The notes under the pieces were generated by a model, which worked only from the letters and a program-made list of their open reading frames with translations, was not told the origin of the DNA and did not search any database. The position numbers and the translations under genes are program-made. Of a stretch of 32,000 bases of DNA, positions 1 through 24,534 are shown piece after piece; positions within the stretch are counted from its first letter, which is position 1; each line of letters starts with the position of its first letter. This DNA is from Candidatus Kuenenia stuttgartensis (GTDB lineage Bacteria; Planctomycetota; Brocadiia; Brocadiales; Brocadiaceae): contig NZ_LT934425.1 of assembly GCF_900232105.1 (NCBI RefSeq), positions 3,420,001 through 3,452,000 of the forward strand, given 5' to 3'.

Positions 1-558
1 CCAGCAATATGCAGACGTAGAATTGTGCTGTGGATGAACTCCATCCATAAAAAGTATCTTATCTCCAGGGGCTTTCTCTTCTTTGAGTTGTTTGTAGTTT
101 TCGATAAATTCTTTTTGTTTTTCAGGGTTTGCTTTGCCTGGAACTATTGTAGTTTTCTTGTAAGTAAAGCCTAATCTATCGAGGGTATGTACCATTCCTT
201 CGGGTGTATAGATTTTATTGAATGTCTGTTTTACATATTCAACAATTTCTTTTGCCGCACTATAGTTGTTTTTCCTGATATGATCTTTTAATTGTTCTTC
301 TTGTTCGCAGGTGAGTTTTGGCACACAGCCAATATAATTGTCAGATAAAAGCCCGTCAAAACCTTTATCTTTGTATAGTTTTTCGTAATTCCTGATTGTT
401 TGATCGTCTAACAAGAGCGCCTCTGCTACTTCTTCATAACTCCATCCTGAATCAAGAAGAAGTATAGCTTTGATTTGGTCGGCATGACGTCTATGAGGCT
501 CTTTCTTATGTGCTTTTTTAAATTCTATTCGGGTTTTTTCACTGAGAAATGGATTCAT
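1..558 (-). CDS. IS630-family transposase, N-terminal part (gene continues past the left window edge)
   Basis: Absent from the ORF track because it is open to the edge. The reverse complement of 1..558 starts at ATG (556-558) and reads MNPFLSEKTRIEFKKAHKKEPHRRHADQIKAILLLDSGWSYEEVAEALLLDDQTIRNYEKLYKDKGFDGLL...GDKILFMDGVHPQHNSTSAYCW. An HTH/winged-helix region followed by the first acidic motif (FMDGVH) is the IS630/Tc1-mariner layout. Confidence 0.8.
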   Translation of the reverse strand, partial: MNPFLSEKTRIEFKKAHKKEPHRRHADQIKAILLLDSGWSYEEVAEALLLDDQTIRNYEKLYKDKGFDGLLSDNYIGCVPKLTCEQEEQLKDHIRKNNYSAAKEIVEYVKQTFNKIYTPEGMVHTLDRLGFTYKKTTIVPGKANPEKQKEFIENYKQLKEEKAPGDKILFMDGVHPQHNSTSAYCW

Positions 559-640
559 GCAGAATTTAATACTCTAGAAACAATTCAAATGCAAGAAAAA
601 AACAGGTTCTTCTAAAAATAAATGCTTTTTACTATAATTC
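1..640 (-). mobile_element. IS630-family insertion sequence, right-hand end (boundary approximate)
   Basis: Contains the transposase 5' part plus ~80 nt of AT-rich terminal sequence. Recognisable methyltransferase coding sequence starts abruptly at ~640 (..[22 protein letters not shown]). The other IS end is outside the window, so inverted repeats and the TA duplication cannot be confirmed. Confidence 0.55.
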
Positions 641-1019
641 TCAAGCCCTTGAAGATACGAAGTACGCGACCCAAAAGCCCGAAGCCCTGCTCGAACGTAT
701 TATAAAGGCATCCTCCAACGAAAACGACATCGTTGCGGATTTTTTCTGCGGTTCCGGCACCACGCCGGCTGTGGCCGAAAAACTGGGGCGTAAGTGGATC
801 GGCGCAGACCTAGGCAAGTTTGCTATCCATACCACCCGCAAGCGCATGATTGGCGTTCAGCGTCAGCTTAAAGAAGATGGCAAGGACTTCCGCGCCTTTG
901 AGATACTCAACCTCGGTAAGTACGAGCGGGCGCATTACATCGGCGTTTCCTCATTTATTGAACCGCGAATAGACGCTAATGGACGCAAATCAAAACAAAA
1001 AGACATTAGCGTTAATTCG
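641..1019 (+). pseudogene. mod: Type III-like DNA methyltransferase (Mod) fragment, upstream of the intron; N-terminal part missing
   Basis: The frame of ORF 771..1073 extended upstream reads [62 protein letters not shown]. This is the TQKP...FxGSGTT...GRxWIGxD block of N6/N4 methylases. No DPPY motif or target-recognition region lies upstream; the sequence changes to the IS630 end instead. The ORF tail after 1019 is intron read-through. Confidence 0.75.
960..1019. repeat. Hairpin repeat with 10-nt periodic units (NNNCGCNAAT): left arm, loop and first 1.5 right-arm units, interrupted by the intron
   Basis: Left-arm units are AACCGCGAAT AGACGCTAAT GGACGCAAAT (961-990). The loop is caaaacaaaaagac. 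The right arm begins ATTAGCGTTA ATTCG (1005-1019). The same unit family occurs at 6619..6648 and 7032..7104. Confidence 0.75.
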
Positions 1020-1520
1020 GTACGCCAAGAAGCGTATATATATCAGTTGGTGCAAATCCAACCCGCCAATTGACCGTTCGGGCGGTAGTGAAAGAGGCAG
1101 AAAACCTCACGGGAGAACGTAAACAGCGATGAATACGTTCGAGTCCCCTGTAGCGAGCAGTCAGACCGTAGCGCAAGCGAACACGCAGGCTTCGTTACGC
1201 TAAAAATACGATAGATGAGCCTCCCGGATTGGGCGAAATCTGTAATCGCATAGGTAGAAAGAGACAAACGGTAGAACTATGCGGTGTCGTCGGAGTTGAG
1301 AGTGACGGTATGACTGTAAAAGGTATATATATGAACTTGGGAGGTCTCATTGTTCAGGTTGATGACCGTAACGCATACTATAAGGGAAGCCGAAGGGTAT
1401 AGCGGGATAATGAGAAGTCGGAGATGCCCATAGTAGTGAAGATGGTGAAGACAACATAACTTCACCGTAGCGAAGGGGCATTACTTCAGTTAACGTTTAC
1501 AAAGAAAGGAGGAAATTGTA

Positions 1521-2819
1521 TTGGGAGACCTACAAGCAATACCGAAATCGCAAATGAGCGATGATGAAAGAGTCCGAGACTTTCAGCGTAAACTATATCG
1601 AAAAGCCAAACAGGAAGAAGGATTTCGCTTTTATGTATTGTATGACAAGGTGAGAATGTTGCATTTTTTGAGAGAGGCGTACAAGCGCTGCAAAGCCAAT
1701 GGAGGAAGCGCCGGGGCAGACGGGATTACATTTGAAGATGTGGAGTCATACGGGGTGGAGAAGTTTCTTGGAGAGATAATAGAGGAACTTGAAAACAAAA
1801 CCTACGAACCACAGCCGGTACTGAGAGTGTACATACCTAAAACCAACGGTAAGACACGACCATTGGGAATCCCTGTGATAAAAGACAGGGTAGTGCAGAT
1901 GAGTGTAAAGCTTGTAATAGAGCCGATATTCGAAGCAGACTTTGAAGATAGCTCCTACGGATTCCGACCGGGACGTTCAGCGGGCGATGCTGTGAGGAAA
2001 ATCAAAGAAAAACTGCGAGAAGGGAAAACAGAGGTATTTGACGCAGACCTGAGTTCTTATTTTGACACAATACCGCACAAGGAATTGTTACTGTTAATAG
2101 GGATGAGGATAAGCGACAAGAACGTACTGCACTTGATAAAAATGTGGTTAAAAGCACCGGTGATAGAGGAAGGCAAACCAGGAGGCGGGAGGAAAAATAA
2201 GATAGGAACACCGCAGGGAAGCGTAATATCACCATTATTAGCAAACATATATCTGCACATGCTCGACAAAGCAGTCAATAGAGAGAATGGGGTTTTCTAT
2301 AAGTATGGGATAACAATCATACGTTATGCGGATGATTGGGTATTGATGGCAAAGCGAATACCTCGTGAAGCATTAGACTATCTCAACAGGTTGTTAAAGA
2401 AGTTAAAGCTGAGTCTTAACGAGGATAAGAGTAAAATAGTAAAAGCTGAAGAAGAGAGCTTTGACTTTCTCGGACATACCATATCCTTCTCAGAAGATTT
2501 GTTTGGTAGGAAACACAAGAAATACTGGAACATAGAACCAAGCAGGAAATCACAGAAGAAGGTTAGGGAAAAGATAGGAAACTACCTAAAGAGCAATGGG
2601 CATAAAGCGGCGGAAAAAGTAGCTAATGAACTGAATGCAATAACAAGAGGATGGATAAATTACTTCACAATAAAGGGAGTAACGTATCCAAACAAGGCGA
2701 AAAGAGACCTACGATATTATCTTTTCAGGAGATTAACGAGATATTATAAGAGGAAAAGTCAGCGCAGGAGCAAGCTCTATAATCGAGGAGCGTTTAAGGA
2801 ATTAGTCAATAGATATTGA
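1521..2819 (+). CDS. Group II intron reverse transcriptase/maturase (no D/En domain)
   Basis: 432 aa. Has RT motifs including RPLGIPVIKDRVVQ, FDADLSSYFDTIPH, GTPQGSVISPLLANIYL and IRYADDWV (YADD), plus the maturase X-domain motif AITRGWINYF. The protein ends soon after X. An AGGAGG RBS lies 6 nt upstream of the TTG start. Confidence 0.92.
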   Translation: MGDLQAIPKSQMSDDERVRDFQRKLYRKAKQEEGFRFYVLYDKVRMLHFLREAYKRCKANGGSAGADGITFEDVESYGVEKFLGEIIEELENKTYEPQPVLRVYIPKTNGKTRPLGIPVIKDRVVQMSVKLVIEPIFEADFEDSSYGFRPGRSAGDAVRKIKEKLREGKTEVFDADLSSYFDTIPHKELLLLIGMRISDKNVLHLIKMWLKAPVIEEGKPGGGRKNKIGTPQGSVISPLLANIYLHMLDKAVNRENGVFYKYGITIIRYADDWVLMAKRIPREALDYLNRLLKKLKLSLNEDKSKIVKAEEESFDFLGHTISFSEDLFGRKHKKYWNIEPSRKSQKKVREKIGNYLKSNGHKAAEKVANELNAITRGWINYFTIKGVTYPNKAKRDLRYYLFRRLTRYYKRKSQRRSKLYNRGAFKELVNRY

Positions 2820-2886
2820 CTAATAGACCCGACAAAATATGTTCCTGCCAGACAACCTGTGAAAGCTTAAGAAGAAGACTGTCGGA

Positions 2887-2919
2887 AAGCCGTGTGCGGG
2901 AAAATTGCATGCACGGTTT
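2887..2919 (+). other. Group II intron domain V (catalytic hairpin)
   Basis: AAGCCGUGUGCGGGAAAAUUGCAUGCACGGUUU. The basal helix AAGCCGUG/CACGGUUU contains the AGC triad, with a 3'-strand bulge and a GAAA-type loop. It lies 68 nt after the RT stop codon. Confidence 0.8.
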
Positions 2920-3037
2920 GACGAGGGGGGCAGATGATAAGTATATGGCGGAGATATGGTGGCACTGGCGGGAAACCAGCCAGCAAACAGAGAAAACAAA
3001 CTTCTGCCTAAGTTCTAGTCGTCTGTTTCTACTCTAC

Positions 3038-3052
3038 CGTTCATTAGCGGTT
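3038..3052. repeat. Remainder of the right arm of the hairpin repeat split by the intron
   Basis: CGTTC ATTAGCGGTT. The reverse complement AACCGCTAAT equals the first unit of the 7032..7104 copy. Together with 960..1019 this gives a 75-nt (25-codon) in-frame element inside mod. Confidence 0.7.
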
Positions 3053-3958
3053 ACTGATCTTTCCCGCGAAGAAATGAAGCGTCGAATCATTGAGCAGAAG
3101 GAAAAGGACTTTATCGCCCTGATTCTCAAAGCCTACAAGGCCGAGACGGTGGATAACTTCAGGTGCTTCCACGGCAAGAAGGCAGGGCGTATTGTCGCAG
3201 TGGGTCCGGTCAATCTGCCTGTCACCCGTTTGTTTGTGGAAGAAATCATCCTCGAATGCCGCGAAAAGCGCATCAGCCGTGTGGACATCCTTGCCTTTGA
3301 GTTTGAGATGGGTCTTTTCCCCAACATTCAGGAAGAAGCCAAGTCCAAGGGCATCGACCTTGCACTCAAATACATTCCCCGCGAGGTCTTTGATAAACGC
3401 GCCATCGAAAAAAATCAAATCGTCTTCCATGATGTTTCATATATCGAAGTCAAGCCTCATGTGAAAAAGAACAGCATCGCAGTTGAACTAACCGATTTTT
3501 CCGTATTCTACAATCAGGATACGGTGAACAACGCCGCTGCTTCACTCGGCAACGGCAAGAACAAGATCGTTGTGGAATGCGGCAAGATCATTAAGGTTTC
3601 AAAAGACAAGGATGGCATCGTTACCCGCGATGTCCTCACTAAAAAATGGATGGACTGGATTGACTACTGGAGCGTGGATTTTAACTTCGAATCCAAGCGT
3701 GAGATTGTCCGCACAAAAAATGAAGCTACCGGAGAAATGGAGGAGGTGTGGACGGGCGACTTTATATTTGAAAACGAATGGCAATCGTTCCGCACAAAGA
3801 AAGACCGGTCGCTGGAACTAAAAACATCATTTCACGACTGCCAGCCCGGACGGTATAAAATTGCCGTCAAGGTGGTGGATATTTTCGGGAACGACACCAT
3901 GAAGATTATTGATGTCAGCGTGGGGGGGGAAATAATAGGGAAGATCGAAATTAATTAG
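3038..3958 (+). pseudogene. mod: Type III-like DNA methyltransferase (Mod), part downstream of the intron (C-terminal region)
   Basis: This is the 3' part of ORF 2816..3958, from ..RSLAVTDLSREEMKRRIIEQKEKDFIALILKAYKAE... to ..KIAVKVVDIFGNDTMKIIDVSV. It is higher in GC than the flanks and is in frame with 641..1019 after intron removal. The ORF residues encoded by 2816..3037 are intron RNA, not protein. Confidence 0.7.
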
Positions 3959-6618: not shown

Positions 6619-6648
6619 AACCGCCAATGGACGCTAATGAACGCGAAT
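6619..6648. repeat. Three 10-nt units of the hairpin-repeat family (left-arm type), overlapping the GxxExxY start codon
   Basis: AACCGCCAAT GGACGCTAAT GAACGCGAAT. This is a near-duplicate of 7032..7061 (AACCGCTAAT GAACGCTAAT GAACGCGAAT). Confidence 0.75.
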
Positions 6649-7050
6649 GGAATAATGAATTACTTTTTAAAAATGAGGTTTTCAAGATAATTGGAGCGGG
6701 AATGGCTGTCTCGAATACGCTTGGATGCGGTTTTCTTGAGGCGGTATATCAAGAAGTTATGGAAATAGAATTGGAAGAAAATGGAATTCCTTTTGAACCG
6801 CAAAAAAGAATACAAATTTCATATAAAGACAGAATTTTAAAAAAAGAATATGTAGCTGATTTTTTATGTTTTGAGAAGATAATCGTTGAAATCAAGGCTA
6901 TAAAAAAAATAACTGAAAATTGAAGAAGCTCAACTGCTTAACTATCTAAATGCAACAAAATTGCCGCTGGGACTAATTGTAAACTTCGGCGGTAAAAAAC
7001 TTGAATGGAAAAGATATGCAAATACAAAAGGAACCGCTAATGAACGCTAA
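6627..7050 (+). pseudogene. GxxExxY protein (PD-(D/E)XK-like family) with an apparent +1 frameshift near 6916-6921 (or a sequencing error)
   Basis: ORF 6627..6923 contains GFLEAVY (GxxExxY) and EIKA. After the stop at 6921, the next frame continues IEEAQLLNYLNATKLPLGLIVNFGGKKLEWKRYANTKGTANER*, the usual C-terminus of this family. Removing one A from the A4 run at 6916-6919 restores a ~140-aa protein. Confidence 0.75.
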
Positions 7051-7104
7051 TGAACGCGAATACGAATATTTTTTATTAGCGTCCATTCGCGTGTATTCGC
7101 GGTT
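7032..7104. repeat. Complete hairpin repeat (3.6 left units, AT loop, 3 right units) between the GxxExxY gene and res
   Basis: AACCGCTAAT GAACGCTAAT GAACGCGAAT ACGAAT atttttt ATTAGCGTCC ATTCGCGTGT ATTCGCGGTT. The arms form an imperfect inverted repeat. The right arm translates as ISVHSRVFAV. Confidence 0.8.
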
Positions 7105-22260: not shown

Positions 22261-24534
22261 TCAATGTTGTGTTTTATCTGCAAAAGGTTTTTGTAAACGA
22301 CTGATTGAGGCTGCAATTGTTTCAGCTTTTTGCTTAATCTGCTTTATACTGTCAGAATCGATATAATCCAGCCGTTCGGCAACTTGAAGATACGTTTCCA
22401 GTTCTGCAATGGAGCCGTTTGCAATGGAAAGATGATTGAAAAACTCTTTGGGATTTTGCATTGCCTGTCCCTTTGCAATAGTTGCCGGGATTGATGCAGC
22501 AGTGCGTTGTAACTGTCCAGCCAGCGCATCATTTTTCCCCTGCGGAATCTCTTTTGTAAGATTATAGCATTCTACTGCTAAGTCCATTGAGCTTTGCCAC
22601 ACTTCCAAATCGCGATAAGATTTACCGCTAATTGTCGTTGGAAGATTATCAGAGGATTGTCCGCGTTGCGGCGGCATTTGTCCTCCAGGTATAGGCTGTC
22701 CACGATGCGGGCCGTTTCCGGGTTGTCCTCCCATGGCAGGGCCTTTAGGCTGCATCGGACGTCCGCCCGTTGGCGACTGTCCATATCCACCTGGCATTTG
22801 TGGGGTTTTTCCTGTCGGTGGTTGTTCTTTGCTATCCACAATCTCAGAGACGGATGATTCATCGTCATCATCTATTTCATCTGATACATATTCCGTATCG
22901 CCACTCTTTTTGCCCTCGACGAACACGGGGGTGGAAGATATTTCCACCGGAAGGGTTTTTCCTGAAGATATCAGAGTCTTTGTGTTAAAAATATTTTTTG
23001 ATGCAGAGTGTAGCTGTTTTCCTTCAGAGACATTTGGTATCGCTTCCGTTACTGTATATTTGCTGTTTTCTGCGACTTTCAAGTCTATTGTCGTTTTCCC
23101 GTTTTCTTTTTCGTACCATAGCACATAAACGTCTTTCTCTGCCTGTGGGAATTTATATGCGTATATGCCGTTTTTGCCATTAGAGATTGCCGCTACATTG
23201 TTCCAATCTGAATTTTTAAGTTTTTCCGTCATTAGCCTGTAGGTATAGAATCCGAGTTTTTTCACTCCATATCCAGGATCGCCGGCGCAATTGCCGTCAT
23301 ATATCAAACCGGTGTATTCAAACATTGATTCACAATCAAATGGTGGCCAGCCTTCCACAAGCGCCCATGCCCAGAATACTTTTTTAATGCCATAACTGAG
23401 TGGATAGACATACCGTTTTATCACCTGAATTGCCTGACCCTTTTCTCCCTCTTTACTGCTGGCGCCCGTTTCGGTCATCCATACGTCAACATTAGTCAAG
23501 CCGCTTTCATCGAGGGCATTGCGTAATATTTTATAGGTGGTATAAGAATCTATAATGCTGTCGTCAAACCAGTGGAAATCAAATATATCGATAGAATCCT
23601 TGTCAAGCGCTCTAATTACCGGAAGCCAAAACTCATTTAATATTTCAGTCCTCATTTTTGGCGGTGGACTTACTATTCCACCACTAAGTACCTTTGCGTT
23701 TTTGTCTGCGCTTTTTATTGCGCTTGAAGTGATATTGATGAGTTCCACATATCCCTTCCATTCACTTCCTTTTTGGGTTTGACCGCCCATCCTGTCAGAG
23801 CCAGGTGGTTGCCCCCTTTGTCCGCCCATAAAGCCGGGTCCCTGTGGTCCGCCTCTTTGACCCATTCCAGGCGGTGGTCCACCTTGTCTTCCGGCGCCTG
23901 CCCCTTGTCCGCCAGCTCCAGGTCCACCACCTTGCTTCTTTTTAACCTGAATAACGGGTTCATTTTCAACCTGCCAGTATTTTACAGGATTTTTGAGCCC
24001 CGGCATATCGTCTTTGCCGTCTCCATCATATCGTTCTACAGCTTTTTTTACGAATTCTATGTAAGCCTCTTTTGCCTGTGGAACAATAAACTCCCATGTG
24101 CCAGGCCGTAACAGCTTTGTGTTAACATTAATGGTAACAACAATGTTCATTTCTTCAGGAATTCTCTTTAAAAAATTATCAGGGATCGTCCAGTTGTATT
24201 TTCCCTGTTGAATAGATTCTTTATCCCTCTGCACAAAAGACCAGTCTAAAACGGGGTTTGACTGACGTTCCCATTTAACACCAAGTTCTATTGCGGTTGA
24301 ATAAGGCGGATTATCTCCCGTGATGCCGTCAAATTCGAAATTCTTTCTTTTTGCCAGCATTTCCTCATTGCTTTTTCTTTTTGGTGGATAAAAGGAGGTG
24401 GTAAATCCAAAAGGAGAATCGAGAGCCGCCTCGTCCCATGCATGAACAATTGATCCCTCGAAAAAACCGAAAGAGAATATCAGCAGAAGTGTCGTTATAC
24501 TGCAAATAAATCGCTGTGTTTTTTGCAACATCAT
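22261..24534 (-). CDS. Secreted clan GH-A-like glycoside hydrolase with two G/P/Q/M-rich low-complexity inserts, fused to a C-terminal four-helix-bundle (23S rRNA IVS / Avd-like) domain
   Basis: 757 aa. Has a signal peptide (FICSITTLLLIFSFGFFEGSIVHA), the acid/base motif YWQVENEP (res 187-193) and the nucleophile motif VWMTETG (res 351-357). Low-complexity runs cover res ~198-256 and ~570-629, with an acidic run DEIDDDDE. Residues ~638-745 read SYRDLEVWQSSMDLAVECYNLTKEIP...QLQRTAASIPATIAKG...KEFFNHLSIANGSIAELETYLQVAERLDYI, matching the four-helix-bundle family pattern. Confidence 0.75.
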   Translation of the reverse strand: MMLQKTQRFICSITTLLLIFSFGFFEGSIVHAWDEAALDSPFGFTTSFYPPKRKSNEEMLAKRKNFEFDGITGDNPPYSTAIELGVKWERQSNPVLDWSFVQRDKESIQQGKYNWTIPDNFLKRIPEEMNIVVTINVNTKLLRPGTWEFIVPQAKEAYIEFVKKAVERYDGDGKDDMPGLKNPVKYWQVENEPVIQVKKKQGGGPGAGGQGAGAGRQGGPPPGMGQRGGPQGPGFMGGQRGQPPGSDRMGGQTQKGSEWKGYVELINITSSAIKSADKNAKVLSGGIVSPPPKMRTEILNEFWLPVIRALDKDSIDIFDFHWFDDSIIDSYTTYKILRNALDESGLTNVDVWMTETGASSKEGEKGQAIQVIKRYVYPLSYGIKKVFWAWALVEGWPPFDCESMFEYTGLIYDGNCAGDPGYGVKKLGFYTYRLMTEKLKNSDWNNVAAISNGKNGIYAYKFPQAEKDVYVLWYEKENGKTTIDLKVAENSKYTVTEAIPNVSEGKQLHSASKNIFNTKTLISSGKTLPVEISSTPVFVEGKKSGDTEYVSDEIDDDDESSVSEIVDSKEQPPTGKTPQMPGGYGQSPTGGRPMQPKGPAMGGQPGNGPHRGQPIPGGQMPPQRGQSSDNLPTTISGKSYRDLEVWQSSMDLAVECYNLTKEIPQGKNDALAGQLQRTAASIPATIAKGQAMQNPKEFFNHLSIANGSIAELETYLQVAERLDYIDSDSIKQIKQKAETIAASISRLQKPFADKTQH

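Follow-up and report, generated by a model that had tools for sequence, protein, structure and literature searches.

For group II introns of classes E and F, the targets have been little described. One of the closest described systems is Ge.ur.I1-1, whose alternative 5′ splice sites, at 9 and 19 nt upstream, each follow an AUUCG, and whose intron-binding site 2 (IBS2) is CGUGU (Nagy et al., PMC3753933). There, the repeated IBS motifs were treated as a peculiarity of one construct and not as the target of a repeat family. The present analysis concerns c-Ku.st.I1, an endonuclease-less intron of Candidatus Kuenenia stuttgartiensis, in a 32,000-nt stretch of contig NZ_LT934425.1 (positions 3,420,001 to 3,452,000; hereafter the window, with positions counted from its first letter and features on the plus strand unless stated otherwise). 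Here, the intron interrupts a short hairpin repeat made of tandem units, which itself sits in frame within the DNA methyltransferase gene mod. Sequential nesting, combined with targeting of such arrays by pairing of exon-binding site 1 (EBS1), is in all likelihood the best joint explanation of these findings.

The supplement of Toro & Martinez-Abarca 2013 (PMC3552965) lists c-Ku.st.I1 from Ca. K. stuttgartiensis with an RT-X (reverse transcriptase and X domain) protein of 432 aa, a length of 2018 nt, the host gene "DNA methylase N-4/N-6 domain-containing protein", and the class label "Unclassified, possible Bacterial F"; the trees of that paper group it with So.us.I2, Ge.ur.I1, and Pe.th.I2. 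Organism, type of host gene, length, and protein length all equal those of the window intron; hence, the two are the same element and the intron itself was already known. The published entry gives class and coordinates and makes no mention of repeat context, nesting, or target preference.

Three further systems invite comparison. Class C (IIC) introns have an EBS1 of 3–4 nt and a ribozyme of about 400 nt, and insert just after a stem-loop that replaces IBS2. Those at terminators and attC sites resemble c-Ku.st.I1 in lacking an endonuclease and in colonising multi-copy, dispensable, and often palindromic DNA; however, they read a stem-loop plus an IBS1 of 3–4 nt and have no EBS2, whereas the window intron has a 6-nt EBS1 and does not need the hairpin. 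Elements that target repetitive extragenic palindromic (REP) sequences include ISPpu9/10 and IS1397, with a P. putida group II intron at two of nine copies (PMC1525189). These too use a dispersed palindromic repeat family as insertion site, but their targets are REP sequences or bacterial interspersed mosaic elements and not tandem-unit arrays, and the association of the P. putida intron is weak. Finally, the intervening sequences (IVS) of 23S rRNA (S23p/IVP gene) and GxxExxY cassettes hold a gene, or nothing, between inverted arms, which here are tandem-unit arrays; the mod repeat differs from them in having no cargo gene, in lying within a protein-coding gene, and in being translated. No description of group II introns targeting such tandem-unit arrays was found in the literature.

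The mod gene retains the order in which these elements were stacked. Its 5′ exon segment (635–1019) encodes an N6/N4 DNA methyltransferase (Pfam N6_N4_Mtase, E = 1.5e-23) to which orthologues align throughout, and its 3′ exon extends from 3038 to 3958, with the stop codon at 3956–3958. Repeat-free orthologues, namely that of genome G005 and those of six more distant Planctomycetota (G084, G094, G133, G074, G312, and G026), read ...HYIGVN(x)NL-REEE... and lack 29 codons that are present here. In two genomes of the same genus (G002 and G003), mod contains the repeat and no intron; in MBR1, the strain of the window, it contains both. Since all three states (no repeat, repeat only, repeat plus intron) survive in living genomes, the order gene, repeat, intron is established and the three nested layers are real. 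A preliminary description made from the letters of the window had proposed this nesting and had claimed that mod stays in frame when the intron is deleted; both are borne out, the former by the orthologue series. Relative to the repeat-free orthologues, the net insertion measures 87 nt (29 codons), which exceeds the 75-nt hairpin by about 12 nt, and occupies 948–1019 and 3038–3064. The first part holds the left arm, the loop, and the start of the right arm (1005–1019), and the second the last 15 nt of the right arm (3038–3052) plus 12 nt. The size of 75 nt given previously is thus right for the hairpin but short for the insertion.

Rebuilt by joining 960–1019 to 3038–3052, the repeat comprises three 10-nt units (left arm, 961–990), a 14-nt loop (991–1004), and three further units (right arm, 1005–1019 plus 3038–3052). 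The preliminary description had these coordinates, the loop length, and the sequences correct. It had also noted that the rebuilt unit recurs exactly: the middle unit ATTCGCGTTC is the reverse complement of GAACGCGAAT, and exact copies of GAACGCGAAT are found at 6639 and 7052. Its count of eight out of ten pairs in the inner stem holds provided that one G–T wobble is included, but a register moved by one unit pairs better (16 nt, 88%). Folded as DNA, the rebuilt 75-mer has a predicted energy of −15.7 kcal/mol. The 10-mer is not enriched in the window, with 24 matches at up to two mismatches against about 30 expected; what stands out is how the units are arranged. A search of the whole genome (G000; 4,406,153 bp, 41.1% G+C) for full hairpins with outer AACC...GGTT returned a single intact one, at 7032–7104.

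Window positions 1020–3037 constitute a complete group II intron of 2018 nt, with GUACG at the 5′ end and CUAC at the 3′ end. A second copy in the genome (G000 3385685–3387702, minus strand) matches exactly positions 1–2018 at 99.75% identity, with five substitutions. The Rfam model Intron_gpII (RF00029; domain V/VI) covers 2885–3037 at 46.3 bits, against a gathering score of 40, and its last base is 3037; RF02003 (5′ part of domains I–IV) matches 1044–1176 at 39.9 bits (E = 1.8e-7), under its gathering score of 49, a threshold passed by related introns. In G002 and G003, the empty site is an uninterrupted repeat within mod, ...GTT(A/G)ATTCG CGTTCATTA..., and removal of the intron from the window is expected to join ...AATTCG to CGTTCATT.... 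The second copy, the Rfam end, the empty sites, and the covariation of EBS1 with IBS1 described below fix the ends between 1019 and 1020 and between 3037 and 3038, and the published length agrees. The boundaries first proposed from the window therefore stand, and the alternative 5′ end at GUGCA (1050), which the same source had raised, is excluded. In place of the canonical GUGYG, the GUACG of this intron is kept in its closest relatives; more distant ones begin with GUGCG.

Domain V (2887–2919) carries an AGC triad, a 2-nt bulge, and a 5-nt GAAAA loop. It is followed by an unusually long domain VI of about 110 nt (2926–3037), in which A3031 is bulged, 7 nt away from the 3′ splice site; the predicted fold of 2880–3037 has an energy of −55.7 kcal/mol (z = −3.6). 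A long domain VI (about 110 versus about 40 nt) is common to the L052, L055, and L082 introns, from Scalindua, Marinimicrobia, and a Bacteroidetes metagenome-assembled genome (MAG), and is not seen in most other relatives. The intron-encoded protein (1521–2819) is a reverse transcriptase with a maturase (X) domain, with YADD at residue 269 (Pfam RVT_1, 2.5e-37; GIIM, 9.2e-11). As merely 14 aa remain after GIIM, it lacks an endonuclease (D/En) domain, in keeping with the first account of the locus. Its open reading frame (ORF) is intact in both full-length copies of the genome, and the intact motifs suggest that c-Ku.st.I1 may still splice and move. Because the intron lies in the sense orientation of mod, splicing would restore the mod frame.

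Three features fit the IIE and IIF introns described by Nagy et al.: the protein has no endonuclease domain, the loop of domain V is 5 nt long, and the ribozyme (intron minus ORF) is IIB-like and small, at 719 nt. The size exceeds the class F range of 450–700 nt on account of the long domain VI. IIE and IIF introns have been described with a 5-nt domain V loop instead of a tetraloop (PMC3753933). On the literature and on these three features, c-Ku.st.I1 is placed in a class F-like lineage with a IIB-type ribozyme. The core class F introns Ge.ur.I1-1, So.us.I2, and Pe.th.I2 share with it the missing endonuclease domain, the IIB-like ribozyme, and the 5-nt loop; it is unlike them in its GUACG start and its long domain VI. 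Class F introns are further characterised by an EBS2 in domain Id next to which the IBS2 is adjacent to IBS1 in the exon, and by an alpha-prime motif on a terminal loop of Id3.

All six positions of IBS1 (AATTCG, 1014–1019) pair with EBS1 (CGGAUU, 1225–1230), one of them as G–U, and IBS1 thus lies where the preliminary description expected it, within ..AATTCG. EBS1 occupies a loop that is apparently closed by a 3-bp covarying stem, as read by eye from the alignment, and it covaries with the end of the exon: of the 204 positions in 34 related introns, 180 are paired, against 118 ± 6 with permuted exons, and none of 2000 permutations reached as high a value. AATCTG, AATCCG, and AATTCG each pair 6/6 with EBS1; its two G residues can pair with C or U, so that both GTG- and GCG-flavour units are within reach. 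The bare IBS1+IBS3 motif AAT[CT][CT]G[CT] occurs 6658 times in the genome, which is about chance frequency, and yet the insertions lie in arrays; something beyond IBS1 is therefore probably read. A candidate EBS2 (AACACG, 1180–1185), homologous to the element reported to pair with IBS2 CGUGU in Ge.ur.I1-1, matches 6/6 with TGTGTT at two other genomic sites; the candidate IBS2 of the window is AGCGTT (1008–1013).

Within the Kuenenia genome, every other copy or fragment with a preserved end adjoins either ...ATCTGTG(nn)AATCYG^ on the 5′ side or ^YG(nnn)ATCYGTGGTT on the 3′ side, the caret marking the insertion point. Most copies are thus in the ATCTGTG flavour, with 9-nt ATCTGTGnn units in an array ending in GGTT, and the window site is in the ATTCGCG flavour. 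A strict pattern finds at least 58 arrays, 36 of the GTG type and 22 of the GCG type, whose orientation relative to replication is unbiased (25/58; GC skew places the origin near 1.88 Mb and the terminus near 3.98 Mb). The preliminary description proposed that the hairpin repeat family may be a homing site and suggested checking whether other copies of the intron follow the same repeat. The idea is right once modified. Arrays are present at all preserved ends, mostly in the other flavour, but the hairpin is not: an inverted partner arm (at least 15 of 20 nt, within 110 nt) accompanies just 6 of 28 sites, the second full Kuenenia copy has none, and at one site (L071) the intron sits in the upstream arm. 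The hairpin as a required feature is ruled out by that count, and the tandem unit is accordingly the target, with the hairpin incidental.

A segmental duplication at G000 984,600–994,400 contains a GxxExxY gene, six ATCAGTGTTCATCxGTGTTCATCCGTGGTT arrays, and a pair of intron copies that have internal deletions and the same flanks. The longest such array of the genome, at 499439–499502, consists of seven perfect or near-perfect tandem TTAAGCGGT units. Arrays of AACCACAGATT at many sites (for example, 238629, 433251, 1420008, and 3802532) carry two recurrent nested inserts, CTTCGTCGTGAGCTCAGTCGAACGATT (about ten copies) and TTCCTGGCGCGGCCTTTGGCCGCAACCAAA (about six copies), which suggests that further small elements land inside arrays.

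The same kind of target recurs well beyond Kuenenia. Both ends could be fixed for 29 related introns (5′ by profile alignment, 3′ by Rfam; proteins 54–97% identical; two introns from one sister-order genome), giving 31 sites in about ten phyla when the two full Kuenenia copies are included. Hosts include Scalindua, Kiritimatiellota, Bacteroidota, Lentisphaerota, Cloacimonadota, Spirochaetota, Ignavibacteriota, Fidelibacterota, Thermodesulfobacteriota, and Bacillota. An extra copy of the 7-nt junction core, at a distance of 7–11 nt or a multiple of it, is present at 20 of the 31 sites against about 10% by chance, and at 13 of 29 sites an 8–11-nt periodicity lies above the 95th percentile of control windows. 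In arrays of 9–10-nt units, the cut falls at a constant position inside the unit (NNNNG^YG). The unit sequences themselves differ (TTAG, TAAG, TCTG, TTTG, and TCAG), and EBS1 follows the unit. A Victivallales intron, for instance, lies in ATTAGCGTTAATAAG^CGATCATTAGCGGTT, which is of the window flavour (ATTAGCG/ATAAG^CG), and has CTTATT as EBS1. In a protein tree of a 27-member clade, array sites occur in all subclades but one, a Bacillota subclade (target ...CCATGG^CG) without array context in the sample, which is presumed to be Pe.th.I2-like. Since relatives in many phyla stand at the same position of the same kind of repeat, the lineage can be said to land in tandem repeats. Distant relatives with 45–48% protein identity (Acidobacteriota, Bradyrhizobium) mostly show no array, and as their 5′ ends were only guessed, no conclusion is drawn from them. 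More distant protein matches in Acidobacteriota, Desulfuromonas, and other Thermodesulfobacteriota presumably lie near the hosts of So.us.I2 and Ge.ur.I1.

A tandem-unit target would also account for the alternative 5′ splice sites of Ge.ur.I1-1, given the AUUCG repeats 9 and 19 nt upstream; repeated IBS1 motifs in the 5′ exon are the same unit architecture as in the window. On balance, it appears probable that a class F-like clade with members in at least ten phyla has specialised in the arrays that arm GxxExxY/23S-IVS-protein cassettes, with EBS1 having co-evolved with the unit flavour and the cut falling at a constant position within the unit.

In a sister genus, contig G019:C44 (L019 and L048) holds a 93–96% identical intron copy that is interrupted, near intron position 1206–1210, by about 1.6 kb of foreign sequence. 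Its flanks, ...TCAGTGTATCACTG^ and ^TGATGATTTGCATGG, look coding and not array-like.

A succession of events consistent with these results can be proposed, in which the order, the boundaries, the EBS1–IBS1 pairing, and the array context are shown and the mechanism of insertion is inferred. An 87-nt hairpin repeat without a gene would first have entered mod in the Kuenenia lineage, in frame and without a stop codon, at the linker after the catalytic domain of this Mod-type DNA methyltransferase, where translation adds 29 residues to the protein. In K. stuttgartiensis, c-Ku.st.I1, which lacks an endonuclease, would subsequently have entered the right arm by reverse splicing, at its middle unit. 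Its choice of target would depend on RNA–DNA pairing of EBS1 CGGAUU with the unit AAT(C/U)(C/U)G, and a further feature of the array is probably read too, possibly through pairing of EBS2 AACACG with YGUGUU of the preceding unit. Arrays may thereby serve introns as safe landing sites, because each contains the site several times, in DNA that is multi-copy and dispensable. Last, an insertion sequence of the IS630 type has broken mod in MBR1. The right part of this element occupies 1–634 (minus strand); the complete element, which interrupts mod, starts 491 nt ahead of the window and ends at 634. The ORF at 1–558 contains helix-turn-helix transposase domains, the transposase being on the minus strand. 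With the element and one TA removed, ...ITDIWLDINEV is rejoined to the downstream part in one open frame of about 790 aa.

Several observations sit less comfortably with array targeting by a class F-like intron. By the criterion used, 11 of the 31 sites show no array, and in a related MAG (L062) an intron that is 97–98% identical occupies a non-array site at which EBS1 pairs at 3/6 positions. The candidate EBS2 pairs at only 4/6 positions in the window and does not covary as AACACG across the relatives (89 pairs against a permutation mean of 93.6), a result that lends this pairing no support. Nine of 12 independent insertions are co-oriented with the replication fork (one-sided p of about 0.07), a trend that is not significant. 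The class F placement draws on the literature and three tested features.

The alternative that survives best, although an unlikely one, is chance: a one-off retrotransposition into an IBS1-like sequence, with the true homing site elsewhere. Consistent with such an event, the window site has the less common GCG flavour and is a poor match to the candidate EBS2, and the near-identical L062 intron lies in a non-array site. However, every other Kuenenia insertion and most of those in other phyla occupy arrays, with the same insertion position in the unit, a GCG-flavour unit still pairs 6/6 with EBS1 through one G–U, and the Victivallales relative occupies this very flavour with an EBS1 to match.

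Improbable to a greater degree is structure-directed targeting of the class C kind, in which a DNA hairpin is recognised and insertion follows at a fixed distance past its stem. The preliminary description drew this analogy from the window, where the insertion lies 5 nt past the inner stem; five related sites likewise have a partner arm upstream, and the best matches among solved structures are IIC reverse transcriptases (179.9 and 178.8 bits against 166.2 for a IIB enzyme), albeit by a small margin. Neither the analogy nor a class C assignment withstands the 6-nt covarying EBS1, the 719-nt ribozyme, and the 22 of 28 sites at which no partner arm rises above background. The other full copy is among the sites that lack one, and its stem-loop, rather than standing directly upstream as in class C, ends about 37 nt ahead of the insertion site; the L071 intron, in its upstream arm, fits no better. 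The 5-nt domain V loop is typical of IIE/IIF, and the published grouping with So.us.I2, Ge.ur.I1, and Pe.th.I2 points the same way.

It is scarcely credible that the arrays arose through intron activity (for example, through rounds of insertion and loss duplicating units) instead of being prior targets: arrays and intron remnants do occur together, as at 984–994 kb, but the intron-less G002 and G003 already hold the complete mod repeat, at least 58 arrays stand against about 12 insertion events, arrays of unrelated flavour bracket GxxExxY and IVP genes, and retrohoming is not known to duplicate its target.

If the clade is indeed specialised on these arrays, one selfish family—the arrays with their cassettes—would be the dedicated habitat of another, the introns. 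The mod locus keeps all three stages of the nesting in living genomes. This allele series offers a natural system for both insertion steps, and a wobble-tolerant EBS1 that reads a short repeated unit would provide a testable rule for the spread of the lineage. The finding should also help to annotate intron ends such as GUACG, which gene finders misplace, and it ties group II introns to widespread, almost undescribed repeat-armed cassettes that are able to sit translated inside genes.

In the genome, arrays of many flavours bracket the genes of these cassettes, which encode GxxExxY (PF13366) and 23S-rRNA-IVS proteins (PF05635). With a cassette arm defined as two to seven tandem units of 8–11 nt flanking either gene type, the mod repeat has arms of the same build (3 + 3 units of 10 nt), which are near-copies of those at 6619–7104. 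It looks like a cargo-less member of the cassette array family. The member at 6619–7104 does carry cargo, with an arm, a GxxExxY (PDDEXK_3) gene, and then the complete 73-nt hairpin (7032–7104); the gene starts inside the repeat-arm copy (MDANEREW...) and has an internal TGA in its family match. Elsewhere in the window, a 757-aa ORF at 22261–24534 (minus strand) includes a complete 23S_rRNA_IVP four-helix-bundle domain at residues 641–745 (about 105 residues), the first 640 aa having no Pfam match. An IVP cassette appears to have become joined in frame with a host gene at its 3′ end.

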